A DNA stretch of 43,958 nucleotides from Myxococcota bacterium (lineage in GTDB: Bacteria > Myxococcota_A > Polyangia > JAAYKL01): positions 1 through 43,958 of the forward strand of contig JALOQD010000029.1 in the NCBI GenBank assembly GCA_025453525.1, in the 5' to 3' direction. The position numbers were made by a program, and so were the translations under genes. Shown in pieces: positions 20,570 to 39,337 of the stretch; position 1 is the first letter of the stretch; the number at the start of each line of letters is the position of its first letter. Under the pieces are notes generated by a model that was not told where the DNA came from, ran no database searches, and was given only the letters and a program-made list of their open reading frames with translations.

Positions 20570-20731
20570 ATGACGAAATACGAATGCAAGGCGTGCGGAT
20601 ACATCTACGACCCAGCCAAGGGCCATACGGCTTCGGGCGTGGCACCGGGAACGAAGTGGGAAGACGTTCCACAGGATTGGGTTTGCCCTCTGTGTGGAGT
20701 CGGCAAGGAGTTGTTCGAGCCCGTGGACTAA
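20570..20731 (+). CDS. rubredoxin (53 aa; below the ORF-track size cutoff)
   Basis: My own translation is [53 protein letters not shown]. It has two CxxCG knuckles (CKACG, CPLCG). AAAGGACAAGGAAA precedes the ATG. Confidence 0.9.
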
Positions 20732-20776
20732 AGGTGCTGCATTTTTTTTGCGAAGAGTCGCGTAAAGGAGGGACCG

Positions 20777-21238: not shown

Positions 21239-21264
21239 CCCTTATCACCACAAAGGAGAGCTCG

Positions 21265-21780: not shown

Positions 21781-21807
21781 AGAACAAAGCCCAAGAGGAA
21801 AACCACG

Positions 21808-24278: not shown

Positions 24279-24297
24279 ACAAGAAAAAAAGAAGGAC

Positions 24298-24335
24298 GGG
24301 CCAAGCACACGCGGTTCCTGCCGCCGCGCTTGGCC
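24298..24335. terminator. imperfect long hairpin between convergent iorB and the OCD-family gene (possible bidirectional terminator)
   Basis: GGGCCAAGC...GCGG TTCCTG CCGC...GCTTGGCC, flanked by an A-run upstream and TAATTT downstream. No strong U-tract. Confidence 0.35.
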
Positions 24336-25727: not shown

Positions 25728-26603
25728 ATGAAAGGCATCATTCTAGCCGGCGGTTCAGGCACGCGCCTTCATCCCATGACCAAGGCGGTCTCCAAGCAAC
25801 TCTTGTCTGTCTACGACAAGCCCATGGTCTACTATCCGTTGTCCACGCTGCTGCTCGCCGGCATCCGGGACATCTTGGTGATTTCCACGCCGTTCGATCT
25901 CCCCATGTTCAGGCATCTGCTCGGTGACGGCTCTGATCTCGGCGTGTCGTTTTCCTACGCAGAACAACCGCGCCCCGAGGGCCTCGCCCAGGCGTTCATC
26001 CTCGGTCGCGATTTCGTGGGCACAAGCGACGTCGCCATGATTCTCGGCGACAACATCTTCTTCGGCCAAGGCCTAGGAACGGCTCTGCGAGATGCCCGCT
26101 GCCGCAATCGCGGCGCCACGGTGTTTCTGTACTGGGTCAAAGACCCACAGCGCTACGGCGTGGCCGAGGTCGATGCGAACAAGAGGGTCACGAGCCTCGA
26201 AGAGAAGCCGCCTGCGCCAAGGAGCAACTGGGCGGTGACAGGTCTCTACTTCTATGACAACCAGGTGCTGGACATCGCCAAGAACCTGAGGCCCAGCAAG
26301 CGCGGCGAGCTCGAGATCACCGACGTCAACAAAACCTACCTCGAGATGAACGCCCTAGAGGCCGAGCTCCTCGGCCGCGGCACCGCCTGGCTCGACACCG
26401 GGACCGCAGACTCCATGCTGCAAGCCTCCAACTTCGTCGAGACCGTACAGAGCCGCCAGGGAATGATGATCTCCTGCATCGAAGAGGTCGCGCTGCGCAT
26501 GGGCAACATCGGTCTCGAGCAGTTGAGCCGGCTGGCCGAGGGCTATGGCAAGAGCACTTACGGCGACTACTTGCGAGAGCTGGTGAAGCAGGAGTCGCGA
26601 TGA
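25728..26603 (+). CDS. rfbA: glucose-1-phosphate thymidylyltransferase
   Basis: [53 protein letters not shown] is the canonical RmlA N-terminus, and ~291 aa fits. The track start at 25575 lies inside the repeat cluster. Confidence 0.95.
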
Positions 26604-27172
26604 GAGTGACACCACTGGCCATTTCGGAAGTGCTTCTCGTGGAGCCGGACGTATTCGAGGACAGCCGAGGCCTTTTCGCCGAGACTTACTCGACGCGCCG
26701 CTATCGTGAGCTCGGCATTGACTGCGAGTTCGTGCAAGATAATCTCTCGTTCTCGCGAGCCGGCACGCTACGCGGCCTGCACTACCAAATAGCACAGGAA
26801 CAAGCCAAGCTCGTGACCGTACTTCGGGGCAGAGTCTTCGACGTAGCCGTCGATATCCGAAGGGGCTCACCGACGTTCGGACAGCACGTCTCGTACGAGC
26901 TCTCGGCCGATGGCCTCAAACAACTGTACATCCCGTGTGGTTTTGCCCATGGCTTCGTGGCGCTCGAAGACAGCATTTTCCAATACAAATGCTCGGCGTT
27001 CTTCGCGCCCCAATTCGAGCGCGGCCTCGTCTGGGACGACCCAGCGCTCGCCATTGCTTGGCCGATGATGCCGACAGAAGTCTCGGACAAAGATCGCAAG
27101 CACAGAAGGCTGAGAGACATTCCCCCTGATGAATTGCCGTGTTTGGGTAAAGCCAGAGGAACCCATGCCTGA
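26600..27172 (+). CDS. rfbC: dTDP-4-dehydrorhamnose 3,5-epimerase
   Basis: ATGA overlap with rfbA. The RmlC pattern is [10 protein letters not shown]...[18 protein letters not shown]...[18 protein letters not shown]...IPCGFAHGF. Confidence 0.9.
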
Positions 27173-28265
27173 TCTGCACCCGCAGCGCATCCTGGTCACC
27201 GGCGGCGCAGGGTTCATCGGGAGCAATCTCGTGTACTTCCTCATCGATGAGCTCGGCGCGGAGGTCGCGAACATCGACAAGCTGACCTACGCGGGCAACC
27301 TGGCCTCGCTCGAGCGGGTCATGCAGAATCCGCGACACCAGTTTCATCGCGTGGATATTTGCGACCGTCCCGCACTGCGCGCAGTGTTCGAAGCCGTGAG
27401 GCCCGAGGCCGTGCTGCACCTGGCCGCGGAGTCCCACGTCGATCGCTCCATCGAGTCACCGGGAGATTTCATACAGACCAACGTGGTCGGTACGTTTTGT
27501 CTGCTCGAAGAGACGCGCCACTACTGGGCCAGCTTGCCTGCCGCTGAAAAAGAGACGTTCCGCTTTCTCGGCGTCTCGACCGACGAGGTCTACGGCTCAT
27601 TGGGCCCCACGGGCAAGTTCACCGAGCAGACGCCCTACGATCCCAGCTCGCCCTACTCGGCGAGCAAGGCCGGAGCCGATCACCTGCTGCGCGCCTACCA
27701 CCGCACCTACGGCCTGCCCACGCTGGTGACCAACTGTTCCAACAACTACGGGCCCTACCAGTTCCCGGAAAAACTCATCCCGCTGATGATCCTCAATGCT
27801 CTCGCGGGCAAACCGCTGCCGGTCTACGGCAAGGGCGAGAACGTCCGCGACTGGCTCTACGTCGGCGACCATGTGCGGGCTCTGTGGACCGTGCTCACCA
27901 GAGGCGCCGTCGGCGAGACCTACAACATCGGCGGCAATGAGGAGCGAAAAAACCTCGAGGTGGTCACGACGATCTGCCACGAGCTCGAGACGCTGCGGCC
28001 CAGAGGCGCCGGAAGCTACGATGCACTCATCACGTTCGTAAAGGACCGACCAGGACACGACTTCCGCTACGCCATCGACGCCGGCAAGCTGGAGCGCGAG
28101 CTCGAGTGGAAGCCCAAGCGCAGTTTCGAGGCTGGCATTCGAGAAACCGTGAGCTGGTATCTTCAGAATGACGAGTGGGTGAGGTCTACGACGAACAGCG
28201 AGTGTCGAAGCTGGACCGAGAGCCACTACAGCAATCGTGCGCCGCTAGCGCCGAGGCTCGAGTAG
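27165..28265 (+). CDS. rfbB: dTDP-glucose 4,6-dehydratase
   Basis: From the ATG at 27165 the sequence runs [21 protein letters not shown]...STDEVYG...[11 protein letters not shown]. It has the SDR extended-family GxxGxxG and YxxxK motifs, with an 8-nt overlap onto the rfbC end. Confidence 0.95.
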
Positions 28266-28315: not shown

Positions 28316-28340
28316 AACGCCGCATATGCGTTCATTTTTT
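28316..28340 (+). terminator. weak terminator-like hairpin after rfbB
   Basis: AACGC (28316-20), a 7-nt loop, GCGTT (28328-32), then CATTTTTT. The T-run overlaps the last codons of the convergent methyltransferase gene. The stem is short. Confidence 0.25.
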
Positions 28341-29492
28341 GTTCCCGGTGGTCACAAGGTAGCGGTAGCTGAGATAGGCCGGGCCTGCCGCACTGCTCGG
28401 TTGCACATCGATCACAAGCCCGCCCGCTGCCTCGATGATCTGAACGACATCGTTCCTTGAGACGCAGTGCATTTCCATGTGCGGCGTGTCGATTTCCGCT
28501 GGCTCATCGACCTTCGGGACCACCGTCCTTCGGAGTTCCTCGGTGGGAACGGCCTCAGCCAATCCGGCGACGCACACAATGATACGAAGCGTGTCGGAGC
28601 CCGACTGCCCGAACCACGCCACATGTTCCTGCACCATGTCGAGTTCGAGGATATAGGTGCCCGGGGTCTTCGGCACCTCAACGGTTATCGAAATCAGCAC
28701 GGTCTCGCCTGGGGCAATATCCTTGGGAATCGGCGTGCGGCCGTCATCAAACCGGATTAGTCGCTGGTCCGCGTCGTACCAATGGTTGCCGAGTTGAATG
28801 AGATAGCGACCGTCGCCAGCATGACCTTTGCGCCAGATCTCCATGCTGTCATTGCGGACGTTCACCAAAATGTCAAATGAGGCTCCTGGAGAAGCGGACA
28901 TCGACATGGTTTCGGCGCTTAGAGCTGCGCGGAACGCCTGACGGTGCAATTGCTCGACTTTGGCGCGACCGTCGTTCGATTCCGCGAGCTGCGCAGGAAC
29001 CTGAAACAGCGCGTAACCGCCTCCCGCAATCAGGCGCACAAAATCACGCATGTACTGCCGACTGTACACGGGCGCCATATGCTGTAACACGATGTTCGAG
29101 TAAATAAAATCGAACTCCCCGTCAGGGAAAGCCGATAGATCCGGCGCAGTGTTCAGCCGGTACTCGCAACGGTCACCGTAGAGGTTAAAACGGTTGGCGA
29201 GTTGGATCATCGACGGCGCGATATCCACGCCGACGCAGCGATCGAAGTGCGCGCACAGAGCCTGCGTGAGTCGGCCGACGCCGCAGCCAAAGTCGAGGGC
29301 CAGGCGGGTTCTGTAGCCTGGCACGGTTTTGTCCAGGTAGGTCTGGACACCGCGGACTTCCTCGACGCCAGAGTTGAAGAACTCCCCGACATCCCAACGA
29401 CCACCCCGTTTACCCGGTGCGGTCAGAATGGCCCATAGTGGATCTTTCTTTCCAAACGAATCCCAGTGGCGTTTCAATTCTTCAATCTGCAT
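28332..29492 (-). CDS. class I SAM-dependent methyltransferase with C-terminal beta-rich domain of unknown function
   Basis: AAGGAAGG RBS. The N-terminus has WDSFGKKDPLWAIL, motif I is ALDFGCGVGRLT, and SNIVLQHM follows. The C-terminal ~180 aa (...GTYILELDMVQEHVAWFGQ...) looks like a non-catalytic beta-sandwich-type module. Confidence 0.8.
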   Translation of the reverse strand: MQIEELKRHWDSFGKKDPLWAILTAPGKRGGRWDVGEFFNSGVEEVRGVQTYLDKTVPGYRTRLALDFGCGVGRLTQALCAHFDRCVGVDIAPSMIQLANRFNLYGDRCEYRLNTAPDLSAFPDGEFDFIYSNIVLQHMAPVYSRQYMRDFVRLIAGGGYALFQVPAQLAESNDGRAKVEQLHRQAFRAALSAETMSMSASPGASFDILVNVRNDSMEIWRKGHAGDGRYLIQLGNHWYDADQRLIRFDDGRTPIPKDIAPGETVLISITVEVPKTPGTYILELDMVQEHVAWFGQSGSDTLRIIVCVAGLAEAVPTEELRRTVVPKVDEPAEIDTPHMEMHCVSRNDVVQIIEAAGGLVIDVQPSSAAGPAYLSYRYLVTTGNKK

Positions 29493-29544
29493 AGGTGCCT
29501 TCCTTGTTCTGGACGAAACGGGTCAGGCCCGTACCGCCTGCAGT

Positions 29545-30882
29545 TTAAAGATACGCAATGTCGACTCCTAGACGCCGCGTGTCGTTGCCGATCCCCGACT
29601 CCGCCGGACACCAGTCATCGCTCAACGAAAATGAGTAGCGGAGTAGCTGGCCGGCGTACCGGGACGGTGTTTTGAGCGTGAAATCGATTCGATCGCGAAA
29701 CGAGCATTCCCCGAAGGGCTCTCCGAAAAGATCGACTTTCATCGTGATCTCGTTGCCCGCAGGATTAGGATTGCACAGCACGAGCCGCGCATCTTCGAAG
29801 CGATCCTGTAACAGTAACTCGAATTCCCGCTGCGTCCACAAGTGGTTCTCAGCCCCTCCGAACTCGAACGGGTATAGCCCCTTGTGATAGTAGGTCTGCA
29901 ATTCGCTGCGGGCCGCGCGGAAGCGGGAGAGCATGGAAGTGCCGTGGGCGATGGTCTCGTCGGGTACGCCACATTTCGCGCACAGCGAATGCCGGGCTTG
30001 ATTTCCTTCGATGTGCATCTGGCGGAACTCCTGCATAAGTGCGCCGTTCCACACCTCGGCTATGCTCTGGCGAGTCAGCTCGCCGAGGACGGCTTTGTAG
30101 TCGAAATCGTTGTGGCAGGGCAGCACCTTCCCATCAAATCCAATGACCAGGGTTTTCCAGGGTTCAGCGCAAATTCTGCCATCGGTTTCTCCGCTGCGCT
30201 CTGCCCCGAGCGCCTTCGCGTTTGCGTACTGGCCCGCGTAGTCGTCGAGGTGCTTGACCACCGGGTGTACGCCCGGGATTCCACGGAAACGGGCCTCGAA
30301 ACGCCCGATGTCGTACGCGTTCTCCGTCATGCGGATCATTTGGACAGCAACGCTTAGTGTGCTGTCACCCGCTCGCGCAAAGCACTCAATGAAGTTTTCA
30401 AGATTACGTATCACCTGCGTGAAGTTGCCGCCGCGGCGAATTCGCTCGTAGGTGCTCCCCTCGAGGGAATCAACGCTGATGATGAGCAGACCGAGTTTTG
30501 AGGCAATGAATGCCTCCGTTGCCGCCATGTCGAGGAGGGTCGCGTTTGTCGACATGGCCACGGTGATGCCCTTTCCCGATGCGTATTCGATCAGCTCGAA
30601 GAGTCGATCGTTCAGAAGTGGCTCTCCGAAGAAGTGCAGATAGATGAACTCGGTGTGGAAGGCCACCTGATCGATGATGTCGCGGAACAGGGCGGGATCC
30701 ATAGCGCCCGTGCGACGGGACATAGTGACGCGTGGACACATGATGCATTCGAGGTTGCAGCGGTTGGTGGACTCTATCACCAGGCAGGCGGGAAGCGCGC
30801 CGACGGTGAGGCTCCGAGACAAGTACGCCTCCAACAGCGTCTGCTGCCGCGCGTCGAGAAATCCTGGAAACTTCACATTCAT
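29545..30882 (-). CDS. radical SAM / SPASM(twitch)-type domain protein with ~110-aa C-terminal extension
   Basis: The CX3CX2C cluster is ESTNRCNLECIMCPR. The auxiliary-cluster pattern is C-x12-G-x4-C (CAEPWKTLVIGFDGKVLPC) plus a later CAKCG. The C-terminal tail ends ...GIGNDTRRLGVDIAYL. Confidence 0.85.
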   Translation of the reverse strand: MNVKFPGFLDARQQTLLEAYLSRSLTVGALPACLVIESTNRCNLECIMCPRVTMSRRTGAMDPALFRDIIDQVAFHTEFIYLHFFGEPLLNDRLFELIEYASGKGITVAMSTNATLLDMAATEAFIASKLGLLIISVDSLEGSTYERIRRGGNFTQVIRNLENFIECFARAGDSTLSVAVQMIRMTENAYDIGRFEARFRGIPGVHPVVKHLDDYAGQYANAKALGAERSGETDGRICAEPWKTLVIGFDGKVLPCHNDFDYKAVLGELTRQSIAEVWNGALMQEFRQMHIEGNQARHSLCAKCGVPDETIAHGTSMLSRFRAARSELQTYYHKGLYPFEFGGAENHLWTQREFELLLQDRFEDARLVLCNPNPAGNEITMKVDLFGEPFGECSFRDRIDFTLKTPSRYAGQLLRYSFSLSDDWCPAESGIGNDTRRLGVDIAYL

Positions 30883-30888
30883 GGCCGT

Positions 30889-33525
30889 TCACGCTCCAAT
30901 CAACAAGAACGGGTTTTCGAAGAAGAGAACCCCGTGTTCCCGAAAAAAAGACTCGGTTCGGTACCAGTATGTGCTTCGCATGCAAGCGGTGCAGGCGTCG
31001 GGGATCTTTTCGTCGAATTTCCACAGCCGTCGGTTCTTCTCGCTGTTGAAAATGTCGCTCAGGGATAACTCCCGCACGTTTCCTAGGTAGTGCTCGTCGG
31101 GAATGTCCGCGTGGTGCTTGCAGAAGGAGACGTCGCCGTTCGCGTAGACCTGCAATTCCATCATAGGAAAGAAACACTGCTGCGTCGGAGCAACAGCCTT
31201 ACGGTGCCAGTGGATATTGCCCCCGTTGTAGCGGTTAGACGCACCGTTCCAGTCACAATACTCGTGGTCCGATCCAAAGGGCAGTACGCGCCCAATGTGC
31301 CGCATCATCCATTCTTCGAACACCACGTCCGGCTTCGGCGCCAGAACCCGGAAACCGATTTTGAGACGCGACGGATCGCGCGTAAGCCTCACGAGCCGTT
31401 GGATGCTGCGGACTGCCCGCTCGAAGTCATTGCGACGTGTGAGGTGTAGATGCTCCTGCTGATCGAGACCATAGATCGAAATCTGCACTTTTGCGACGCG
31501 GGCCATCACTTCGGCGAGATCGTCGTCGCTAAGCAGATCAGAAGGGATCGCGTTTGTCGTGAAGCTCACCGAGTGGATCGCCGGATACCGCTCTATAAGT
31601 TCGAGCCGCTCGCGTAGTCGGCGATCGAGAAAGACCTCACCGACGACAGGCGTGAGCGATAGAAAGCCGCCGCCCATCGCGCTGTAGTCGCGGAGCACCT
31701 TCTCGAAGGTCGAGAGGGACATGATCTCCTTTGGACGGCGCATGACCGCACGCGTGCAGATTACGCAGTCGTTACAGCACATGTTCACTGTCTCGCAAAT
31801 CACCATCACGGGCCGGCTTAACACCGTGCCGTTGCTACCCAACGGCGTATAGAAGAGGTACGGTGCATATATCGGATCAGAGAGCAATGCGTGGGATTCA
31901 TACACATTAACGACGTCAACCCCAGTGTGGTCCTGCCTATCGGAGAATGGGTAACTGGTGGTGCACATAAGGGGCTCTTCGACCGAGTGCGAGTCCACTT
32001 TCGTACCGTGCGAATAGGAAATGAAGTGAATGGAGTAGCGAGTCGTTTCACAGAAATTGCCAACCCAGGAGGATTCTGCAGGCTCGCCGTTGATCAAAAC
32101 CGACTTCGAAGCGCTGTCCAGGAGGACATGGATTTCTCGCTTCTCACCTATCGGAATGGAAAGTTTCTTGTTCCAGTAGCCGAAGTGCCTGTCGGGATGA
32201 GCTGGAGCGTCTTTAGGGTAAATGTCCAGTGAGAGTTCATCGATATTAACGTTGCTCGCGTTGGTTAAAGTTAAGTCGAAGGTCTTCAACCAGGGCTTAT
32301 CGGAGTCGCATGGTTTGAGTGCTTCGCTCTGTTTAGGTGTCACACGGCAAGTGGGGCGGGCATCGACGGATTTGTCGTTTCGGCCGAAGGGATAGCGTTT
32401 TGAGCGTTCGATTCTCGCCTCTCGGATTGGCTTGGAGAAAAATTGATCGTCAAGAAAGTCGAGGTTCTTTGCCTTTGAAGCGTAAATCAAAACATAAAAC
32501 GGGAAGGAAAAGGACTTAAATTGGAAGGAGGCCATGGCATGGTAGAAAGGTGCAAATGGGGGGTTGTCCTGTCCATCGTATTTTTGAGGCATCGGGTAGT
32601 GCGAGCGTATCAGGTTTTTATCAAAGGAATCGGGTATGGCTGTCGGGTCGATGAGAAAGTAGGGAAACATCTTGATATGGGCGAATCCCGCACTGTGGAA
32701 CATTTCGTAAAAGTCCGTAAAATGGTAGCTCGATTTTCGGATCGAATGGTTGATGCGATCTTCGGTTTCCACGGTATTGACTTGTTGATCCACACTGAAA
32801 TTGACAATAGGTTCGACGGAGCAGAAGACGCCTTCGTCCTTGATGATTGTAGAAAGGCTGTCGAGGGCTCTCTGCAAGTTGGCGTAGTGGTGGAGTGTCA
32901 TGCTTGAATAGATGAGGTCGACGGAGGAGGGGGCTAGGAACTGGGTCTCGGCGTCTGCGATGATCCTTTCGAAATAAACATGGTATCGCTCGAAGAAGAC
33001 ACGCTTCGCGAGGCCTAACCCGTATTTATTTGAACGCACGATGTCGTTGGATATCGCTTTTATGTTGGGGAGATTCAATGAAAAGTGTTTTGTGGTCCAC
33101 CCGGTTTGCGTGCCGAGGTCGAGGAGGACGGGATGGTCCTTGTTTAGCAACATCTCCGAAATGAGGTCCATGTTCCAGGACAACACTCGCTGTTCGATTT
33201 TCCAGCATCGATTCTCGTCGAAGCCGCCAGAAGAAATGTCGAAGACGCGCGAGGGCGCGGGGAGCTCATCGAAATGGTCATCGCCGAGGCCGAGCTTGGA
33301 GAGTTTTGCTTCCCATCCGGCCGCTTCCTTTTGGACGCCTTCGCAGTCAGGAGAGGCTCCGAGCATATTGACCATTCCATCTTGGATTTCATAGCGGCTG
33401 TCGCATTTATCACATTTCAGTGCGCCTTCGCAGATCTCCCAGCAGTCTCTTTGAACGGGCTCCAGGAGGGTCAGAAAGGAATGACATCTCGGGCAGCACA
33501 TCAGATTTAAGGCTTGGTCTTTCAT
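30889..33525 (-). CDS. 878-aa multidomain protein: Trm112-like zinc ribbon + SAM methyltransferase + unknown middle domain + radical SAM/SPASM-type domain
   Basis: N-terminal zinc ribbon CCPRCHS...KCDKCDSRYEIQDGMVNML (Trm112p-like). The MTase-like region is VLLDLGTQTGW...IYSSMTLHH. The C-terminal radical SAM has CX3CX2C (MCCNDCVIC) and C-x12-G-x4-C (CFFPMMELQVYANGDVSFC) plus CTAC. The ATG overlaps the stop of the upstream gene (TCAT at 33522-33525). Confidence 0.8.
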   Translation of the reverse strand: MKDQALNLMCCPRCHSFLTLLEPVQRDCWEICEGALKCDKCDSRYEIQDGMVNMLGASPDCEGVQKEAAGWEAKLSKLGLGDDHFDELPAPSRVFDISSGGFDENRCWKIEQRVLSWNMDLISEMLLNKDHPVLLDLGTQTGWTTKHFSLNLPNIKAISNDIVRSNKYGLGLAKRVFFERYHVYFERIIADAETQFLAPSSVDLIYSSMTLHHYANLQRALDSLSTIIKDEGVFCSVEPIVNFSVDQQVNTVETEDRINHSIRKSSYHFTDFYEMFHSAGFAHIKMFPYFLIDPTAIPDSFDKNLIRSHYPMPQKYDGQDNPPFAPFYHAMASFQFKSFSFPFYVLIYASKAKNLDFLDDQFFSKPIREARIERSKRYPFGRNDKSVDARPTCRVTPKQSEALKPCDSDKPWLKTFDLTLTNASNVNIDELSLDIYPKDAPAHPDRHFGYWNKKLSIPIGEKREIHVLLDSASKSVLINGEPAESSWVGNFCETTRYSIHFISYSHGTKVDSHSVEEPLMCTTSYPFSDRQDHTGVDVVNVYESHALLSDPIYAPYLFYTPLGSNGTVLSRPVMVICETVNMCCNDCVICTRAVMRRPKEIMSLSTFEKVLRDYSAMGGGFLSLTPVVGEVFLDRRLRERLELIERYPAIHSVSFTTNAIPSDLLSDDDLAEVMARVAKVQISIYGLDQQEHLHLTRRNDFERAVRSIQRLVRLTRDPSRLKIGFRVLAPKPDVVFEEWMMRHIGRVLPFGSDHEYCDWNGASNRYNGGNIHWHRKAVAPTQQCFFPMMELQVYANGDVSFCKHHADIPDEHYLGNVRELSLSDIFNSEKNRRLWKFDEKIPDACTACMRSTYWYRTESFFREHGVLFFENPFLLIGA

Positions 33526-36500
33526 TTATTTGATCCCTTTTTTTTGTGTCGGGACTTCTGAGACATCACCAGCGAAGGTAAACGAGACGTAGGAGCGATC
33601 CTACCCTTTGCGTGATACTCGAGCAGAAGGCTGCGAACCTCAGGAGAAAGGAACGGGTGCGCTTCCAGACACCTAGAAGAAACGTGATACAGGTCTTCCA
33701 ATAAGCCACGGCGTTGGAGCAGAAGGCATAGGAAGAGGCAAAACCGTGGATTGATGCCGGGGTGAAGATCTGTCGCCAGTCTTAAATAACGCTCGGATTC
33801 ATCAAGTTCGCCCTTTCGCAGAAGGGCTGTCCCGAGTATTGCTTGCATCATCGGATCTGTGGGAGAGTAGATCGGTTCGACAAGTGCAATCGCACGATCT
33901 GGATTCTTGTCAACGACAGCGAAAGCCTCGCCCATTGTTTTCTGGCGATCGAGAATCGCAGTCGCTTGCTGTGCTAGACGCTCAAAGTGCGCAGCTTTTT
34001 CCGGAGATGGGAGTCTCGCGAGAGACTCGGAGTAGTTTCTTTTGAGGCTATCCGCCTCCTTGTGCCAAGAAAAAGAATCGACGAGATCGCGAAGGTTCGT
34101 CTGTTTTGGGCGGAGCAGTGAGTTGAGGACAGCTTTGCGAATGGAGGATGGATCGGAAGGATCGCAATATTCAACCGATTCGCCGAGATAGTCCCGAATG
34201 GTTCCCCAGTCGCTCGCGACAATGTTGCAACCTTGCCAGGCGGCTTCCAGGGTTACGAGACCTGGAAGTTCATACCAGCTGGGTAGGGCGTGTACCTTCG
34301 CTGCGGCGTAAGCGGATAGGAGCAGTTCTTCCGAGAGGCGCCCTGTAATGAGCGTTTTTCCCTTACGGACAAAAGAGGCACACATCTGTTCATACTCGGG
34401 TTGGGGAGAGGGGCTGTTAACAAAAACGAGAGGGACGTCGTCTTCCTTGAGTGCGTATAGGAGCATGAGCTGGTTTTTACGGCTCTCTAGTCTTCCGACG
34501 CAGAGAACAAAGTTGCGTAGGCCGTAGGTGTTTATAAATAGGTCCGGTCCAATAGCAGAGGCGTCTTTGGGACGTGTGAAACCGAGCGGCAGGTTGACAA
34601 TGGGCGCGATGGTCGAATAGGACGAACGAATCGTGGAAGCTTCGGCATTGCCGCTTACAAAAATCGTCTCGGCTCCTTGGTAGGTGAAGTCCGCGAGAAC
34701 TGGGACAGTGCATGCGGAGTGCGACCCAATCGAAACGAGGCGAGACTCAAGGCGAGAACGATTGTGCGAAGTGAAAAACTCGCGGAAGGCATTGACTACG
34801 TCAATTGCTTTTTGCGAGTAGCGAGAAGTATCTTCATGCATTGGTGTAATGAAATAGGGCTTGCGCTGTTTTGCAGCGTTCAAGGCATAAAGTTCAAAAT
34901 GATTGAAAATATGAATGAAGTCATAGAAGGATAGGTCGGTTTGGCAGTCACAGCTGAAGTCGACGATAAGGTCTACGTCTTCAAGTTCTTTTTTAAGTCG
35001 GATCATGACCTCCGTGTCTCCCCCTGGAAGGACGAAGGCGTTTTCTCGCCCCTGGAAGAGAACTCTGGGCTGCCGCTTTGGTAAGGGCGTGTCACGAGGG
35101 GGTGAAAGCTGCGAAGCGAGGGAGATGCTCTCGAGGCGTTTCGCGATGGCGAGTGCCGCGTGCGTCCTTGTGAAGTTGTCGATGATGTGGCGGCGACCTC
35201 TGCGTCCTTTCTCTGCAGCCTCTTTTCTATTTTCAAAGACATGCCGCATGAGTTTTTTTGTGTGAGCGAGAGAAGGCTCAGCCCACTTGTGGCCGGCGTA
35301 GGACGGGTTGTCGCGGATTTGTTCGTCGGGGACATTGTCTAGGCGCGTAACATCGATAAGATACGAGTTGTCGTCGTTCATAAACTCGAGGTTGCCGCCC
35401 CACCTCGTGGCAATGACTGGGATCTCCATGAGCATGCTTTCGCACAAGGGCATGCCCCAACCTTCCCCCCGCGTCGGCAGCACAAAGACATCGCCTGTTT
35501 TATAGAGTCGCGGCATGTCGTCGGTGGGGATCATTTCCTTGATGAGCTCGATAGACGGAATCTCGTTGGAGGAGTATCCAAGTGTCGATATGTATGATGA
35601 GAGCTGCTCCTCGATAGGGATTCTGTTCGGCCCAATGACCCCGCCCCCCAAATAGGAGCGGATAAGGAGACAGGTCTTTTCCTTTTGGTCGAATTCTTCT
35701 AGGTAGGCACGGACTAGTACGTCCCAACCCTTGCGCGTGGTCCATTCGAAAACCGACAAAAATCTAAATTCCGCGTTTGGGGCGTAGGGAAGGGGCGTTG
35801 TTGATTCCGGACGGTAGCGCGACACATCGACCCCGTGAGGGATGACGTGGATTTTGCTGCTGTCTACGCCTGCACACGCGAAGGCATGAGCATTGAAGCG
35901 ACTCGGGACCCAGATTTCGTCCATCGTGTTGAGGGGTTCGACCCAGTCGTCTGGGATCCTATCGGTTTCAAAAGTCGTGTATGACACATAAGCGCTCATA
36001 CCGGGATTGACGCGTCTGAACTGCTCGATGAAGTTGCGACCGTCGGGAGCCGTTGGTGGGTGATGGAGAACATGGACTCCACCAAAGGGAAGGCAAGACA
36101 TTTCGCAGATACTGCGAACCGTCGCTTCGTCCGCTGGGGAGAAGACGCAGACATCTTCGATACTGCCATTGAACAGCGCGCGAGCTACGACCCCTCCGGT
36201 TTGCTGTGAGGCGGAGTCTGCGTTCATCACTTTGCAGTCACCCCAGATGGGCTTAGCGTTGATCCGAACTCCTATCTCGGCAAGGCCGGCGAGATATTCG
36301 CGCGCGGCGGAGGCGTACCCGCTGAATCCAAGGCAAGGTCCCTCCCATGTGAGTCTCAGATCGCCAAAGCGTTCGCGGATGTCCAAACTCGGAATTCCCT
36401 GGTCGTCCATATCAATGTCAGAGACGGAAAACAGATCACGGGAAACCGAGGGGACGGCTTTTGCGAGTAGGTTGGATTTATCGACGCCGTCATCGGTGAC

Positions 36501-36962
36501 TTCGAGCACAAAAAAACCGCAATTCTCAAGGATCGTCCGCAAAGAAGTTCGGTCAAAGACTATGAAATGAAAGTTGCCGGCGTAGTCTTGGCCTCCATAG
36601 AGGCGCTCCACGATAGGGTCGACGATTGTTGAATCCTCTCGGCGCCAACCAACCGGTCGCTCGTAGTAGAGCTCGAGAAGACCTTCGAGGTTTGGTACGC
36701 GAATTTCGATGAAGCCGTTGGGAGAGAGTACGCGGCACCATTCCTTGAGGAGGCCGGAGACTTCGCGAAAGGGAAAGTGCTCCAGAATATCATGCGCCAA
36801 GATTTCCTGGACCATACCATCCATAAAAGGAAGAGAGCGCACGTCGCAGTATGCGTTGATGCCTGGGACGGGACGGGTGTCGAGATTGATGTACCCGGAA
36901 CGGGCATCGCCACCGCAGCCTAGGTTGAGCTTCAACTGCCGAGGTTTGCTAGGCGGCATCAT
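33522..36962 (-). CDS. giant multidomain glycan-synthesis protein: N-terminal SAM methyltransferase + two GT4-type glycosyltransferase domains + C-terminal TPR-like region
   Basis: The MTase motif is LKLNLGCGGDARSGYINLD...LSPNGFI. GT domain 1 is ...PTRGEGWGMPLCESMLMEIPVIATRWGGNLEF. GT domain 2 is ...GRLESRKNQL...PSWYELPGLVTLEAAWQGCNIVASDWG. The TPR-like tail is ...ILGTALLRKGELDESERYLRLA. The start is set at the ATGATG (36962/36959) rather than the track ATG at 37025, because the upstream small ORF stops exactly there and MTase domains normally begin a few residues before the GCG motif. Confidence 0.8.
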   Translation of the reverse strand: MMPPSKPRQLKLNLGCGGDARSGYINLDTRPVPGINAYCDVRSLPFMDGMVQEILAHDILEHFPFREVSGLLKEWCRVLSPNGFIEIRVPNLEGLLELYYERPVGWRREDSTIVDPIVERLYGGQDYAGNFHFIVFDRTSLRTILENCGFFVLEVTDDGVDKSNLLAKAVPSVSRDLFSVSDIDMDDQGIPSLDIRERFGDLRLTWEGPCLGFSGYASAAREYLAGLAEIGVRINAKPIWGDCKVMNADSASQQTGGVVARALFNGSIEDVCVFSPADEATVRSICEMSCLPFGGVHVLHHPPTAPDGRNFIEQFRRVNPGMSAYVSYTTFETDRIPDDWVEPLNTMDEIWVPSRFNAHAFACAGVDSSKIHVIPHGVDVSRYRPESTTPLPYAPNAEFRFLSVFEWTTRKGWDVLVRAYLEEFDQKEKTCLLIRSYLGGGVIGPNRIPIEEQLSSYISTLGYSSNEIPSIELIKEMIPTDDMPRLYKTGDVFVLPTRGEGWGMPLCESMLMEIPVIATRWGGNLEFMNDDNSYLIDVTRLDNVPDEQIRDNPSYAGHKWAEPSLAHTKKLMRHVFENRKEAAEKGRRGRRHIIDNFTRTHAALAIAKRLESISLASQLSPPRDTPLPKRQPRVLFQGRENAFVLPGGDTEVMIRLKKELEDVDLIVDFSCDCQTDLSFYDFIHIFNHFELYALNAAKQRKPYFITPMHEDTSRYSQKAIDVVNAFREFFTSHNRSRLESRLVSIGSHSACTVPVLADFTYQGAETIFVSGNAEASTIRSSYSTIAPIVNLPLGFTRPKDASAIGPDLFINTYGLRNFVLCVGRLESRKNQLMLLYALKEDDVPLVFVNSPSPQPEYEQMCASFVRKGKTLITGRLSEELLLSAYAAAKVHALPSWYELPGLVTLEAAWQGCNIVASDWGTIRDYLGESVEYCDPSDPSSIRKAVLNSLLRPKQTNLRDLVDSFSWHKEADSLKRNYSESLARLPSPEKAAHFERLAQQATAILDRQKTMGEAFAVVDKNPDRAIALVEPIYSPTDPMMQAILGTALLRKGELDESERYLRLATDLHPGINPRFCLFLCLLLQRRGLLEDLYHVSSRCLEAHPFLSPEVRSLLLEYHAKGRIAPTSRLPSLVMSQKSRHKKKGSNK

Positions 36963-37276
36963 CTCCAGTTGTCCTTCCGAGTTCGCGCCCTTCCGATGCA
37001 AGGCTCGATAGCCGGAGCGGTCCAAACGCGCTGTTGAACACTCATGACCTTAACACGCTTCTTCCTCGCGCCTTGAAAAGCAATTTTATTTACAGAAATC
37101 GGACCTGTGTTCCATTGCGCGATAATTTGCGAGACCAAGAAATAGCCGGGCACAATCGACAACAACCTAGCCCGAGGGGAGGCATCGAAGTTTCGAAACA
37201 GGAGTGCGTCCGGCTTTGCTGGCGTGGTGCAGTAGACCCGCTCGCCAAATTGGCGCAACGAAAAGGAACTTTTCAT
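36959..37276 (-). CDS. hypothetical 105-aa protein (operon-internal small ORF)
   Basis: The ATG is 1 nt after the stop of the upstream CgeB-like gene (TGAcATG). Its TGA overlaps the ATGATG start of the downstream giant gene. It fills what would otherwise be a ~315-nt gap in a tightly packed operon. I recognise no motif. Confidence 0.4.
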   Translation of the reverse strand: MKSSFSLRQFGERVYCTTPAKPDALLFRNFDASPRARLLSIVPGYFLVSQIIAQWNTGPISVNKIAFQGARKKRVKVMSVQQRVWTAPAIEPCIGRARTRKDNWR

Positions 37277-37277
37277 G

Positions 37278-38477
37278 TCAGATCATCCTTCTTGCCCGTC
37301 CTTTAAGCTCTTCGGCAATAGAGTCGAAGCGTTGCTGATAGGTGTGGAAGGAAGAGACTCGCTTGCGAGCAATGGCGACGACGTCGCGCGTTTCCTCCAA
37401 ATGTTCCTTCCAGTGCCCAACCTGCCATCGCAACTCCTCCACCCCCTCATAAACCACCGCCTCCTCGCCCACCTTGAACAACTCAAACATATCCGGCTGC
37501 GCGTCGCTGAGCACGAACCCTCCGGCCACGGGCACGTCGAACACTCTTTGATTGACCGCCGTGGGCATCTGGCAGCTCGTGGCATTAAGGACAATCGCTG
37601 ATGACGCATAGACCTTCGCCAGATCCTGTCCGTAGTTGACTGGGCCGTGGTGCTTGGCGTTCGGAACCAGGGTCTTCCAGCCGTCGTCTCCGTAGAGATG
37701 CAGGTCCGATCCTGCCAAGGCTCTTACGATTTGCAGGCGCTTTTTCGCTGTGGCGGTCCAGGTAGCGAGCTCCCAGATGTCCCAGACGTCGTCTCCTGGG
37801 GGCGGTTTTATGGGGCCGACGGTGTCGAGCAGGGTGTCGAATCTTGTCCCCTCGACCATCTTCTGCGCGAGCTCTTCAGCCAAGGCCTTGCCTTGCTTGC
37901 TCAGGTTCTTTTTCGCCTTGCGCTGGGCATGGGCCATGGAGTCGCCGACAAAGGTGATCGGCTTGTCTATCTTGGGCCGCTGCGCGAGCTCGAACTTGGC
38001 CGGGTCTGTGGCGAGCGGCAGGTAGTGGACGTGCTTGGCGCCTTTTTTTCGCATCACCGGTTCTAGGGTGCGCTCCCACAAAAACAGTCTAGTGACGTTG
38101 GGCGCTGGGAAGCTCGCCTGCTTGAGGATGAACAAGGGGCTGTCCACGTACCACACGGCCACGGGCATCTCGAGCTGCTCGAGCAGGTCTCCGATCTGGC
38201 CGCCATCGTCGAAGCCAAAGTGATTGACCGTGAAGATGAAGTCCGGCTTGTGCGTCACGAGCGCTGTGAGCAGGCTGCGGACCCAATCGCCCACGGGCTG
38301 GTCTTTATGGGTCTTGAGAGTAAAGACCTCGCAACCGAGCTTGGGCAAGGTCGAGATGGCCTCTTTTTGCAAGTGGTACTCGCTGTCGATGACGATAGCG
38401 CGATAGGGTTGTCTCTCGAATTTGGGGTACGACAGCGCTGCCTTGAGCCCAGTGTCCTTGATGCTGATGCTCGCCAT
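37278..38477 (-). CDS. CgeB-family glycosyltransferase (DUF3880-like N-domain + Glyco_trans_1_2-like C-domain)
   Basis: The N-domain has ...KPDFIFTVNHFGFD.... The C-domain runs VLNATSCQMPTAVNQRVFDVPVAGGFVLSDAQPDMFELFKVGEEAVVYEGVEEL...HTYQQRFDSI, which is the typical CgeB-like pattern. It starts 2 nt after the rfbD stop. Confidence 0.75.
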   Translation of the reverse strand: MASISIKDTGLKAALSYPKFERQPYRAIVIDSEYHLQKEAISTLPKLGCEVFTLKTHKDQPVGDWVRSLLTALVTHKPDFIFTVNHFGFDDGGQIGDLLEQLEMPVAVWYVDSPLFILKQASFPAPNVTRLFLWERTLEPVMRKKGAKHVHYLPLATDPAKFELAQRPKIDKPITFVGDSMAHAQRKAKKNLSKQGKALAEELAQKMVEGTRFDTLLDTVGPIKPPPGDDVWDIWELATWTATAKKRLQIVRALAGSDLHLYGDDGWKTLVPNAKHHGPVNYGQDLAKVYASSAIVLNATSCQMPTAVNQRVFDVPVAGGFVLSDAQPDMFELFKVGEEAVVYEGVEELRWQVGHWKEHLEETRDVVAIARKRVSSFHTYQQRFDSIAEELKGRARRMI

Positions 38478-38479
38478 GG

Positions 38480-39337
38480 CTAGCGAACCTCATGCAGGAA
38501 ATCTGCCAAGGTTTCTTCAAGGGGTCGCATGCGGCTCAAACCGAGGCGCTCGAGCTTGTCACACGACAGCCGGGAATCCAAAGGTCGGCGCAAACCCGCT
38601 GCGAGCTGCTCCGAAGATATGTCTTTCACCGCAACGTTCATCCCGGCCTGGGCAAACGTCAAACGGGCGAGCTCCGCCCACGAGATCCCCGGCGGATTCA
38701 CCGCGTGATACAGGCCCGCAGGCGCTTCGGTCTCGAGCAGTGTAGCGATTTGCCGGGCGAGATCGACCGTGTAGGTCGGGCAGCAGCGCTGATCGCAGAC
38801 CACGGAGACTTCACCTTTTTCCGCGCCGAGGCGCAGCATGGTGGTGACAAAGCTATGGCCGCTCTTAGCGCGGCATGGATTTCGCCCGAACAATCCCGTG
38901 GTGCGCACCACGAGAGTGTCTTCGTATTCGGCGCGGCACAGGTGCTCGCCCGCGAGCTTGGAGGCGCCGTAGACCATGAGCGGGGCAGGGCAGTCCTCCT
39001 CGGTGTAAGGTCGCCCGGCCGTTCCGTCGAATACATAATCGGTGCTGATGTGGACGAGCCGTGCTTTCACCTCGCGACACGCGCGACCGAGGTCTCGCAG
39101 AGCCGTCGCATTGAGGGCAAAGGCTTGGTCCGGCTCGCGCTCGCATTTGGGCACATCGTGAAACGCCGCGGTGTTGACGACGGCTGCGGGCTTGTGATGC
39201 GCGAGATAGGCTGCGAGCTTCGGCGAATCAGCAAGGTCGAGCTCGCCGTGGGTCGGGGCCAGGACCTCGTGACCGTCGAGGGCTGGGAGCAGGTCGCTCC
39301 CGAGCTGTCCCTTGGCGCCGATGACGAGGATTCTCAT
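38480..39337 (-). CDS. rfbD: dTDP-4-dehydrorhamnose reductase
   Basis: The sequence runs MRILVIGAKGQLGSDL...VVNTAAFHDV...LVHISTDYVFDG...YGASKLAGE, which is the RmlD pattern. 285 aa. Confidence 0.9.
   Translation of the reverse strand: MRILVIGAKGQLGSDLLPALDGHEVLAPTHGELDLADSPKLAAYLAHHKPAAVVNTAAFHDVPKCEREPDQAFALNATALRDLGRACREVKARLVHISTDYVFDGTAGRPYTEEDCPAPLMVYGASKLAGEHLCRAEYEDTLVVRTTGLFGRNPCRAKSGHSFVTTMLRLGAEKGEVSVVCDQRCCPTYTVDLARQIATLLETEAPAGLYHAVNPPGISWAELARLTFAQAGMNVAVKDISSEQLAAGLRRPLDSRLSCDKLERLGLSRMRPLEETLADFLHEVR

Follow-up and report, generated by a model that had tools for sequence, protein, structure and literature searches.

Two BtrN-like radical-SAM enzymes in a compositionally atypical gene module of a Myxococcota bacterium belong to families that recur beside the export ATPase Wzt

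Radical enzymes encoded beside the genes of export pumps point to an undescribed step in the synthesis of cell-surface sugar chains. Two radical-SAM enzymes of this kind, here termed rSAM-A and rSAM-B, are encoded on a Myxococcota contig, and the recurrence of both families beside the export ATPase Wzt, or fused with it, is the strongest lead of this analysis, one that was absent from the original prediction made on this DNA. The window is the entire contig of 43,958 bp, and all statements of absence cover the contig, not the genome. The reading that we favour, at just short of an even chance, is an acquired module for a methylated glycan, in which BtrN-like radical-SAM enzymes would act on sugar residues and contribute to an export-coupled cap at the chain end.

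The module lies within a rhamnose locus. On the + strand, rmlA (glucose-1-phosphate thymidylyltransferase, 291 aa, 25728..26603; TIGR01207, E 9e-137), rmlC (dTDP-4-dehydrorhamnose 3,5-epimerase, 26600..27172; TIGR01221, E 2.5e-67) and rmlB (dTDP-glucose 4,6-dehydratase, 27165..28265; TIGR01181, E 4e-147) are convergent to a run on the - strand headed by rmlD (dTDP-4-dehydrorhamnose reductase, 38480..39337; TIGR01214, E 2e-82). All four exceed the NCBIfam equivalog cut-offs, as the predicted placement of rml genes around the run implied. The rmlA product is matched exactly by an entry of the protein collection; the start of rmlB is uncertain (27165 to 27183), its counterpart on the sister contig L067 being called at 366 aa. 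Where the convergent rmlB and MTase genes meet, there is a terminator-like hairpin with T-run (28316..28332, + strand), a consensus match only, and such sites across the region are no more numerous than expected from shuffling.

From rmlD (39337) down to 28332, ORF coordinates, families and codon GC define six genes on the - strand rather than the seven originally counted. The seventh, a 105-codon ORF (36959-37276, 105 aa), appears non-coding, with GC3 of 0.50, no coding signature, no Pfam or NCBIfam match and no equivalent in the related loci. It is held in a 315-nt spacer (36963..37277, - strand) that has no Rfam match. The junctions described earlier (gaps of 2 and 1 nt, overlaps of 1 and 4 nt, gaps of 6 and 52 nt) agree with the ORF coordinates; nevertheless, with the spacer ORF probably non-coding, six genes and a 315-nt spacer are left, and a single translationally coupled operon is therefore unsupported. 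More likely, the layout is an rmlD-glycosyltransferase (GT) pair plus a four-gene unit.

The composition follows the same division. The GC content of 1-kb windows averages 0.547 inside the region (minimum 0.489; range 0.49-0.59) against 0.615 ± 0.021 (mean and sd) in the flanks outside it, and the tetranucleotide distance reaches z = 11.3. The AT-rich interior is thus real, but it is restricted to 28.3-37.3 kb, which contains only the four genes, and the contrast is milder than the 37-52% versus 70% first estimated by hand (about 49-59% versus 61-63%). Outside it, rmlD (GC3 0.74) and the CgeB-like GT (GC3 0.77) are host-like. The four-gene module is also found in a Polyangiaceae MAG and on a JGI contig, at 56-71% identity, in another gene order and without rml genes, and the Polyangiaceae copy is likewise lower in GC than the sequence around it. 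Horizontal acquisition, as proposed, fits these compositions, except that the unit is the four genes and not the whole run from rmlD to 28332; the module (28332-36962) may thus have been inserted between host rmlACB and the host rmlD/CgeB-like GT pair.

The CgeB-like GT of that pair (399 aa, 37278..38477, - strand) matches DUF3880 and Glyco_trans_1_2 (E 2e-27). The largest island gene (33522..36962, - strand) encodes a giant GT of 1146 aa, with an MTase at residues ~1-160, GT4 domains at ~200-610 and ~620-985 (two stretches each of Glyco_trans_1_4 and Glycos_transf_1; Methyltransf_11, E 1e-4) and then a TPR-like tail, the TPR signal being weak here and clear in homologues 56-57% identical. The next gene encodes an 878-aa fusion on the - strand. 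Its N-terminus (32680..33525) consists of a Trm112-like zinc ribbon (residues 1-55; Trm112p, E 5e-5) and a class I SAM methyltransferase (residues 119-282; NF038101, E 6.5e-11; Methyltransf_23, E 3e-11), and its C-terminus is the rSAM-A domain. The orphan middle (residues ~300-545; 31891..32628) is the lowest-GC stretch (0.494); no homologue in the protein search covers it and no Pfam family matches it even at E<=1, and its GC by codon position is still coding-like. The module is completed by rSAM-B and by a 386-aa class I SAM methyltransferase with a C-terminal Ig-like module (28332..29492, - strand; methyltransferase at ~60-170, Methyltransf_11, E 1e-16; Ig-like at ~200-300, N_BRCA1_IG, E 9e-6, below the Pfam cut-off), which is 71% identical to its partner in the Polyangiaceae module. 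The domain inventory drawn up before largely holds: three GT domains are detected by Pfam, and beta-rich modules are represented by the Ig-like match and by a predicted beta-sandwich in rSAM-B (349-444). In place of four SAM-MTase domains, however, Pfam detects three, plus the zinc ribbon.

Both radical-SAM proteins carry Radical_SAM and SPASM matches in Pfam together with the predicted C-x12-G-x4-C and CxxC motifs. In rSAM-B (445 aa, 29545..30882, - strand), C42/C46/C49 form the core and C238/C256/C301/C304 the auxiliary set, followed by a conserved predicted beta-sandwich (residues ~335-445); in rSAM-A (residues 546-878 of the fusion; 30889..31890, - strand) the corresponding residues are C583/C587/C590 and C784/C802/C845/C848. 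Each family alignment has CX3CX2C and exactly four more invariant Cys (3+4). The twitch enzyme BtrN is the top Foldseek match of both AF2 models, with DesII and anSME next (pLDDT 91 for rSAM-B; 83.5 for rSAM-A, where anSME precedes DesII), and the best PDB sequence match of rSAM-B (E 1e-19; profile E 2e-28), all four auxiliary Cys aligning with BtrN C169/C187/C232/C235. BlsE and SpeY are also among the sequence matches of rSAM-B, and DesII ranks high by fold, SpeY far lower in both Foldseek lists. The nearest relatives of both enzymes therefore include sugar- or cyclitol-acting radical-SAM enzymes, in keeping with the analogy drawn originally. Identity to BtrN is only ~20%, and the chemistry could differ, BlsE being a decarboxylase and DesII a deaminase. 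As for the modifications suggested before, neither family alignment has an extra invariant Cys as hydrogen donor, which argues against epimerisation, and the lack of a B12 domain in the proteins speaks against radical C-methylation.

Members of both families directly follow Wzm/Wzt in bacteria and methanogens. The order Wzm - Wzt(+Wzt_C) - rSAM-B - MTase - multi-GT4 is present in 8 of 13 distinct loci, mostly of Methanomicrobiales, and AglB is present in one of the Wzm/Wzt loci of rSAM-B. In the rSAM-A family (420 clusters at E<=1e-30), the association extends to fusion, with the Wzt NBD in an LPS-type locus (L069) and with Wzt NBD plus Wzt_C in P0132, P0277 and P0302; L084 is arranged as Wzm-Wzt-[MTase-MTase-Ig-rSAM-A], the Ig-like module lying immediately N-terminal to rSAM-A. 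Other fusions join rSAM-A to GT2 or to a CgeB-like GT with TylF/RMNT_CmcI O-MTases, or place it inside multi-GT/MTase proteins of 2-3.4 kaa, and P0025 joins rSAM-B to an MTase. The common neighbours of the two enzymes are MTases, GTs, a second radical-SAM enzyme and Wzm/Wzt. Both families are uncharacterised and not RiPP-associated: no close homologue of assigned function was found for either enzyme, their neighbours are not RiPP genes, and to our knowledge no member has been studied.

Several observations were counted against the favoured reading. As originally reported, Wzx/Wzy, Wzm/Wzt and initiating polyprenyl-phosphate transferase families have no match in any scanned gene of the 44-kb contig, which also lacks a ligase and an oligosaccharyltransferase, and the two closest homologous modules likewise have no export, initiation, ligase or oligosaccharyltransferase gene within 10 kb. 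The full rml set adjoins the module in this window only, relatives having no more than rmlA-, rmlB- or rmlD-like genes, and these in a few loci (L082, L131). Across the wider rSAM-A family, Wzm/Wzt matches occur in a minority of neighbour ORFs, from crude gene calls on many short contigs, and none of the rSAM-B, Ig-like and orphan modules shows homology to Wzt_C, the cap-binding domain. Finally, P0150, a relative of the giant GT (46% identity across GT4-GT4-TPR) with a fused TPR-rSAM 29% identical to rSAM-B, lies in a flagellar island (L150).

Under the favoured reading, the 1146-aa protein would synthesize and O-methylate a glycan, probably from the adjacent dTDP-L-rhamnose supply, and both twitch enzymes would modify sugar residues in it. 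That they act on a glycan is very probable, and that this glycan is rhamnose-based is rather likely; 'polyrhamnan with methyl cap' as a description is tentative, drawing on rml adjacency and the WsaE-like domain order. Reductive cleavage of SAM would yield a 5'-deoxyadenosyl radical that takes hydrogen from a sugar carbinol carbon, and the substrate radical would be oxidised to a keto-sugar by electron transfer to the auxiliary [4Fe-4S] cluster; such dehydrogenase-type chemistry is plausible, at somewhat less than an even chance. The keto-sugar might then be decorated by paired methyltransferases, rSAM-A being fused to its own and rSAM-B adjoining the MTase-Ig protein. As relatives of both enzymes stand at, or are fused to, Wzt in the position of a WbdD-type terminator, their most likely role is therefore a chain-end cap, tentative as that assignment is; the cap would stop polymerisation and license export by an ABC transporter, and the wzm/wzt genes of this organism would lie outside this contig.

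The main rival, unlikely in our estimate, is cytoplasmic O-glycosylation of flagellin or another secreted protein, in which rhamnose-containing, methylated glycans would be put directly on protein by the giant GT with its TPR tail and by the CgeB-like GT, and tailored by the radical-SAM enzymes and MTases. Requiring neither lipid carrier nor exporter, it accounts for the lack of wzm/wzt, wzx/wzy and initiating transferase on the contig and in the two closest modules. TPR-containing GTs, such as FlmG and GmaR, are typical of flagellin glycosylation, and P0150 is encoded between fliD/fliS genes beside an MTase and a CgeB-like GT 31% identical to that of the window. Nevertheless, flagellin, FliD and FliS genes are absent from the window and from the other ~148 loci with rSAM-A or rSAM-B relatives, the TPR signal of the window protein is weak, and true family members are tied to Wzm/Wzt and once to AglB, both acting on lipid-linked glycans. 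A polymethylated polysaccharide of MGLP/MMP type, kept in the cytoplasm as a store or chaperone and never exported, would also explain multiple MTases without an exporter, and the JGI module abuts GH57 and GT4 genes, an arrangement resembling the mycobacterial MGLP locus. These two genes, however, lie on the opposite strand and are a common pair of glycogen type, and the association of the families at large with Wzm/Wzt and AglB favours surface glycans, leaving this reading very improbable.

Other alternatives concern the substrate. The enzymes might tailor internal residues in every repeat rather than the chain end, for instance by oxidation and re-reduction with net epimerisation: action during polymerisation would suit those members that are fused to polymerising GTs or form part of multi-GT megaproteins (P0150, P0310, P0370, P0383, P0389), and the sugar epimerases NeoN and HygY have the twitch fold. 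The Wzt fusions and WbdD-like gene position suggest instead a once-per-chain event, a conserved donor Cys is lacking, and one SAM per residue would be costly in a polymer, so that we regard this as quite unlikely. Action on a nucleotide sugar before transfer, converting for example dTDP-4-keto-6-deoxyglucose or dTDP-rhamnose into an unusual donor, is suggested by the good matches to DesII and BlsE, whose substrates are nucleotide-linked, by the position of the module within rml genes and by SDR, rmlB-like and DegT genes near some relatives; it is improbable, as nucleotide-sugar genes are absent from the surroundings of the closest modules and fusions to Wzt, Ig-like modules and GT/MTase assembly-line proteins better suit a polymer. 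The slightest chance is given to peptide or protein maturases (RiPP or anSME-like) adjacent to glycan genes by accident. NCBIfam gives partial matches to sactipeptide, ranthipeptide and PQQ maturases and anSME, all far below cut-offs, anSME, SuiB, CteB and SkfB are among the fold matches, and some members carry the JGI name 'AslB'. Context largely refutes this option: there is no precursor peptide, the sole small ORF being non-coding-like and unconserved, the window has no sulfatase, neighbours and fusion partners are those of glycan assembly, and four auxiliary Cys contrast with seven or eight in SPASM maturases.

Among known systems, BtrN (2-deoxy-scyllo-inosamine dehydrogenase of the butirosin pathway, PDB 4M7T) shares with rSAM-A and rSAM-B the radical-SAM core and a twitch domain with four Cys for one auxiliary [4Fe-4S] cluster, and its substrate is a carbohydrate-like carbinol. 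It differs in identity (~16-21%), in lacking the conserved ~110-aa beta-sandwich of rSAM-B and the MTase, Wzt or GT fusions of rSAM-A, and in its aminoglycoside context, as opposed to glycan polymer assembly and export. SpeY, of the same class, is a more distant relative. HygY and NeoN, the basis of the original analogy, are likewise twitch enzymes acting on sugars, but these epimerases require a conserved Cys as hydrogen-atom donor, whereas the present families have no invariant Cys besides cluster ligands. DesII and BlsE also use radicals to convert deoxy- or uronic sugars, but their substrates are soluble nucleotide sugars of antibiotic pathways, and we know of no fusions of them to export or polymerase proteins. 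FlmG-type flagellin islands resemble the module in a TPR-bearing GT, a CgeB-like GT, MTases and the lack of an exporter, with L150 as a homologue among fliD/fliS; they differ in their flagellar genes, which true rSAM-A and rSAM-B members do not adjoin. WsaE of Geobacillus stearothermophilus is a trifunctional 2-O-methyltransferase and alpha1,2- and alpha1,3-rhamnosyltransferase whose methylation caps a polyrhamnan bound for Wzm/Wzt export (PMC2943079). By described domain order, the giant GT resembles it in having two GT domains behind an MTase at the N-terminus, with rml genes in the cluster; it differs in its TPR-like tail, the contig lacks wzm/wzt and a WsaP-type initiator, and the WsaE cluster has no radical-SAM genes. 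The position beside wzm-wzt held in E. coli O8/O9a by the terminator WbdD, a methyltransferase with or without kinase, is held by rSAM-A/-B relatives with an MTase, the radical-SAM domain standing in the place of the kinase, and by this analogy a two-step logic of activation and then methylation is conceivable.

The run headed by rmlD lies on the minus strand, with open reading frames (ORFs) at 38480-39337, 37278-38477, 36959-37276, 33522-36962, 30889-33525, 29545-30882 and 28332-29492, and the junction spacings given in the original prediction were reproduced exactly from these coordinates. The 33522-36962 ORF starts with ATG at 36962, and an upstream TTG is also possible. RmlD and the products of the convergent plus-strand genes rmlA (25728-26603), rmlC (26600-27172) and rmlB (about 27165-28265) score above the NCBIfam equivalog cut-offs of TIGR01214, TIGR01207, TIGR01221 and TIGR01181, respectively, and hence the dTDP-L-rhamnose pathway (RmlABCD) is complete beside the module, with four of four models. 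In Pfam, the 399-aa protein encoded next to rmlD is CgeB-like (DUF3880 and Glyco_trans_1_2), the 1146-aa protein matches part of Methyltransf_11 and, after it, has two GT1-family domains, the 878-aa protein combines Trm112p, Methyltransf_23, Radical_SAM and SPASM, the 445-aa protein has Radical_SAM and SPASM, and the 386-aa protein has Methyltransf_11 with a sub-threshold match to the Ig-like N_BRCA1_IG. The run thus contains three SAM-dependent methyltransferase (MTase) domains instead of the four expected, the fourth being absent even at E<=1, and six genes instead of seven once the 36959-37276 ORF is dropped as non-coding. Otherwise, the original prediction was largely right in its observations, and the thrust of its interpretation holds.

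In one-kb windows, GC averages 0.547 (minimum 0.489) inside 28332-38477, against 0.615 (sd 0.021) outside, while the tetranucleotide distance to background peaks at z = 11.3 at 32-34 kb and is again at background level by 37 kb. GC at third codon positions (GC3) is 0.50-0.65 in the 1146-aa glycosyltransferase (GT), 0.60-0.65 in the N-terminal two-thirds of the 878-aa fusion, 0.68-0.73 in the radical-SAM (rSAM) domains and the 386-aa MTase, 0.77 in the CgeB-like GT and 0.74 in rmlD, with host genes at 0.73-0.82. From per-gene GC3 and composition, therefore, a foreign-looking unit does exist, as had been proposed, but it is confined to four genes at 28332-36962 and does not extend over the whole run. 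The interval 36963-37277, which holds a 105-codon ORF, has a GC3 of 0.50; it was considered as a precursor peptide, small protein or riboswitch and rejected, having no coding signature, no family match, no homologue in 150 loci and no blastn conservation, with no Rfam match anywhere in the window. It is treated as a non-coding spacer, such that the four genes may or may not be co-transcribed with rmlD and the GT. No sigma-70-like promoter was found in the operon scan, and terminator-like sites occur at shuffle expectation. Direct and inverted repeats at the island boundaries are limited to short, chance-level matches, and no integrase, transposase or other mobility gene is present in the window.

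A search of 5.8 billion proteins detected no homologue of the middle region of the 878-aa fusion (31891-32628, minus strand, ~245 residues). GC is lower there than anywhere else in the window, but the codon-position GC pattern remains coding-like. Within the rmlACB operon, the GC3 of rmlC (26600-27172) is 0.67, noticeably below the 0.82 of rmlA and rmlB. L067 (JGI Ga0392394_0000797), a 35-kb contig that a different assembly yielded for this organism, ends inside the rSAM domain of the fusion, at positions 1-378 of L067, and that assembly therefore broke within the low-GC island.

The same module occurs elsewhere. The nearest homologues of the 445-aa protein, hereafter rSAM-B (29545-30882, minus strand), are 67-68% identical and come from a Polyangiaceae metagenome-assembled genome (MAG) and a JGI contig, both with the order rSAM-A, rSAM-B, MTase and MTase-GT4-GT4-TPR, where rSAM-A corresponds to residues 546-878 of the fusion. 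Their rSAM-A proteins (339 aa) are 61-64% identical to that of the window, their MTases 71%, and their MTase-GT4-GT4-TPR proteins (1127-1131 aa) 56-57%. In the Polyangiaceae MAG, the GC of the module is again below that of its flanks. The atypical composition in the window and the recurrence of the module with a GC dip therefore support horizontal movement of a four-gene cassette, which in this genome landed inside the rhamnose locus. No rml genes are found within 10 kb of the MAG and JGI modules. Of the suggested rml linkage, the wedging of the module at a full rml set stands for this genome, but full rml adjacency is seen only in the window.

Elsewhere in the window, a minus-strand trio at 3699-7358, comprising a class I MTase (242 aa), a GT4 (410 aa) and an acyltransferase/alpha-beta-hydrolase fusion (529 aa), has host-like composition and may serve another glycolipid or glycan function. 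The CapA/PGA_cap-family protein encoded at 12255-14651 (minus strand) has 798 aa, roughly double the typical length of that domain. The oxygen- and NO-stress block of anaerobe type at 17440-24300 encodes a Rieske protein, DUF2231, a ferritin-like protein, flavorubredoxin (FprA), a 53-aa rubredoxin (called on L067) and two rubrerythrins, followed by indolepyruvate:ferredoxin oxidoreductase alpha and beta, and suggests an anaerobic host.

Both rSAM proteins belong to the radical SAM superfamily (PF04055), scoring 57.4 bits (rSAM-B) and 36.8 bits (rSAM-A) against a cut-off of 29.5, and carry the invariant or near-invariant CX3CX2C motif, which binds the SAM-cleaving [4Fe-4S] cluster, at C42/C46/C49 and C583/C587/C590, respectively. 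In the rSAM-B family alignment (n=23), C42/C46/C49 are near-invariant, C238/C256/C301/C304 are invariant, and a C-terminal region of ~110 aa is conserved. Among PDB entries, rSAM-B matches BtrN best (E 1e-19 by phmmer, E 2e-28 with the family profile), followed by BlsE, anSME and DesII, and its four distal Cys align with C169/C187/C232/C235, the auxiliary-cluster ligands of BtrN. Its AlphaFold model (pLDDT 91), with a beta-sandwich at residues 349-444, also finds BtrN as the best fold match in Foldseek (E 3e-16, TM-score on target 0.75), ahead of DesII, SuiB, CteB, SkfB, BlsE and anSME, with SpeY much lower. Although rSAM-A shares only 24% identity with rSAM-B, its family alignment has the same pattern of three plus four invariant Cys, and its model (pLDDT 83.5) matches BtrN first, then anSME and DesII. 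In twitch (BtrN-type) enzymes, the SPASM domain is shortened and holds one auxiliary [4Fe-4S] cluster, with four Cys as its ligands. The Pfam SPASM model matches both proteins despite their four-Cys auxiliary motif, but a full-SPASM motif of seven or eight Cys is lacking, with only four invariant Cys after the core in either family alignment. Because of this four-Cys pattern and the BtrN fold, both are classed as twitch-type enzymes with one predicted auxiliary cluster instead of full SPASM.

NeoN/HygY-type epimerases need a conserved non-ligand Cys as hydrogen-atom donor. Beyond the three plus four cluster ligands, no invariant or near-invariant Cys exists in either family, which argues against a Cys-donor epimerase and would be compatible with two-electron oxidation of the BtrN/anSME type. 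Oxidation of a secondary alcohol to a ketone, as catalyzed by BtrN or SpeY, is proposed tentatively and at somewhat less than even odds, from the ranking of fold and sequence matches and the missing hydrogen-donor Cys. The aminoglycoside or aminocyclitol context of those enzymes is not shared, as the window has no aminocyclitol genes and the neighbours are rml genes, GTs and MTases. An anaerobic sulfatase-maturing enzyme was rejected (TIGR03942 22.8 bits against a cut-off of 349; no sulfatase in the window). Likewise unsupported is the proposal that the C-terminal beta-sandwich of rSAM-B, the Ig-like module of the 386-aa MTase and the orphan middle region of the fusion are cap-binding modules of Wzt_C type: when the profiles of these three were compared with each other and with Wzt_C by hhalign, probabilities were at most 21% and none was significant.

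Full-length rSAM-B proteins are few, at about 35 cluster representatives. Their distribution over species-representative genomes covers Methanoregulaceae, other Methanomicrobiales, Methanospirillum stamsii, a Bathyarchaeia MAG and the Polyangiaceae MAG. In 8 of 13 distinct loci, the gene is directly 3' of wzm and wzt (with a Wzt_C domain) and is followed by genes for a 390-490-aa MTase and then a 786-1109-aa multi-GT4 protein; one of the eight also has AglB. The MTases encoded after the rSAM gene in the archaeal loci and in L069, which encodes a Wzt::rSAM-A fusion, form a single conserved family with 39-58% identity between the two domains of life. Some rSAM-B variants carry a fused hexapeptide acyltransferase, others a fused MTase (P0025). 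Both twitch enzymes of the window are MTase-paired, rSAM-A by fusion and rSAM-B by adjacency or, in P0025, by fusion.

Individual rSAM-B loci differ in their surroundings. On the chromosome of the cultured methanogen Methanospirillum stamsii Pt1 (L009, 2500-18100), a full-length homologue stands beside a GT2, a GT4-GT2 fusion and an SDR, beyond which are three tandem PDDEXK_2 transposase genes and then PseB-like and DegT genes; no wzm or wzt is found within 10 kb. In Candidatus Desulfarcum epimagneticum (L005, 640-21400), two adjacent rSAM/SPASM genes, one of the rSAM-B family, are surrounded by NRPS-like adenylation/PCP/MTase proteins, a B12-rSAM, a GT4-MaoC-SDR fusion and a DegT aminotransferase, which looks like a hybrid glycan/acyl tailoring cluster. 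A CcdA/CcdB toxin-antitoxin pair with a PDDEXK gene is located at 12212-12765 of L004, amid a glycan cluster encoding Wzm/Wzt, rSAM-A and an rSAM-B::MTase fusion.

The rSAM-A family is larger, with 420 clusters (50% identity) at E<=1e-30 among 1.84 billion representatives, and its fusions are diverse. It is joined to the Wzt nucleotide-binding domain (NBD) in P0124, whose locus has lipid-A acyltransferase-like and heptosyltransferase genes, then genes for an MTase, a GT4 and a 1073-aa GT4-GT4-MTase, and to the Wzt NBD plus Wzt_C in P0132, P0277 and P0302. Other fusions are to GT2 (P0310, L095), to a CgeB-like GT plus O-MTases of TylF and RMNT_CmcI type (P0332 and relatives) and to plain MTases (P0300, P0327, L084, L088, L099), and rSAM-A is also found inside proteins of 2-3.4 kaa with GT2, GT4, GT9, MTase and TPR domains. 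In L084, wzm and wzt (NBD plus Wzt_C) precede a gene for an MTase-MTase-Ig-like-rSAM-A protein; the Ig-like part of this protein and the module at the C-terminus of the 386-aa MTase are homologues. In the wider family, flanking ORFs most often fall into the Pfam families of class I MTases, GT1-family GTs, a second Radical_SAM/SPASM protein and Wzm/Wzt. Since crude ORF calling and many short contigs weaken these counts, this is a tendency instead of a rule. A gene in the terminator position next to wzm/wzt (with Wzt_C) was seen in relatives at L003, L004, L007, L008, L065, L066, L068, L069, L071, L082, L084 and L087. Within the limits of the contig, no Wzm, Wzt, Wzx, Wzy or polyprenyl-phosphate transferase family was found among the scanned genes of the window, and an ABC-transporter pathway with a WbdD-type terminator is not seen there, since wzm and wzt are absent from the 43,958-bp contig, of which the window is the whole.

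Because rSAM-A is fused to Wzt and to GTs with sugar O-MTases, and because the genes neighbour Wzm/Wzt in bacteria as well as in methanogens, where AglB is a further neighbour, the rSAMs are linked to glycan assembly, and they very probably act on glycans. Maturation of peptides or proteins, as by a RiPP maturase, is essentially excluded by this context and by the four-Cys auxiliary motif: the sole small ORF is non-coding-like and unconserved, the surrounding genes belong to MTase, GT, rSAM and Wzm/Wzt families, and no RiPP-type family occurs among the flanking ORFs of the wider rSAM-A family. Checked against what had been named as refuting the proposal, the two enzymes have neither a characterised close homologue nor a RiPP context. 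The main rival is cytoplasmic protein glycosylation of the flagellin type, which would account for the absence of exporter and initiator in the window and in the two closest modules. A relative of the 1146-aa GT, P0150, carries an N-terminal TPR-rSAM 29% identical to rSAM-B and is encoded between fliD and fliS, with a CgeB-like GT (31% identical to that of the window) and an MTase. However, flagellar genes are absent from the window (Pfam/NCBIfam scan) and from the other ~148 loci, phmmer matches to FliC/FliD/FliS being confined to L150, and the true rSAM-A and rSAM-B families are linked to Wzm/Wzt and AglB.

In the preferred reading, the 1146-aa GT would make a methylated, rhamnose-containing chain, the rSAMs would take the hydrogen off a carbinol carbon of a sugar residue and oxidise that residue, the auxiliary cluster receiving the electron, and the MTases would decorate the oxidised product. 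That the glycan is rhamnose-based is somewhat probable. The rSAMs might instead tailor residues within the polymer, act on nucleotide sugars as DesII and BlsE do, or serve a cytoplasmic methylated polysaccharide; a cap added once per chain and coupled to export is favoured because relatives sit at the WbdD position and are repeatedly fused to Wzt, although the cap or terminator role is itself less likely than not. Taken together, a horizontally acquired glycan module with sugar-oxidising, possibly chain-capping rSAMs is held with slightly less than even confidence. Broader still, and unlikely on present grounds, is the proposal that rSAM-A and rSAM-B represent an unrecognised class of glycan chain terminators or cap-formers common to Bacteria and methanogenic Archaea. 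Such a twitch rSAM, sometimes in one polypeptide with the Wzt ATPase, would oxidise the sugar at the end of a lipid-linked polymer, and the cap would be completed by a partner MTase. In this way, radical chemistry would be tied to the control of chain length and to export where the assembly of O-antigen, S-layer and N-glycan depends on ABC transporters.

In the window, two uncharacterised families of the sugar-acting twitch rSAM class are built into polysaccharide assembly lines, and the recurrence of the fusions to Wzt, GTs and MTases and of the neighbourhoods in Bacteria and Archaea lifts a one-locus oddity to a hypothesis on a widespread, unstudied enzyme class. If the rSAMs act on polymer, theirs would be a new reaction type in surface-glycan biosynthesis, possibly yielding a keto-sugar or derived cap made anaerobically, and they might provide a new way of ending chains and of licensing their export. 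A terminal cap is what phages, antibodies and the Wzt binding domain would encounter. The hypothesis is testable, as the enzymes are small, Methanospirillum stamsii is cultured, and the natural Wzt::rSAM fusions offer a biochemical handle.

Among known systems, the 1146-aa protein resembles WsaE, with Methyltransf_11 at residues 39-85 and GT1-family domains at 403-537 and 816-951. In G. stearothermophilus, WsaE combines an MTase at the N-terminus with two GTs, polymerises rhamnose and adds a 2-O-methyl cap, which is thought to be read by Wzt (PMC2943079). The likeness is one of domain order, MTase then two GTs, and no named WsaE is among the 120 best homologues of the 1146-aa protein. In fold and predicted cofactor layout, both rSAMs belong to the BtrN twitch class, whereas by context they fall outside every characterised functional family; their relatives hold the gene position of the chain terminator WbdD next to wzm-wzt and are repeatedly fused to Wzt. 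A literature search that covered a minority of subscription-journal papers found no report connecting radical-SAM enzymes with Wzm/Wzt systems, with chain terminators or with the assembly of O-antigen. To our knowledge, sugar-acting twitch radical-SAM enzymes (BtrN, SpeY, HygY, NeoN, DesII and BlsE) have so far come from small-molecule antibiotic pathways, and the proposed transplantation of this chemistry into polysaccharide assembly and export is rated as the new element.
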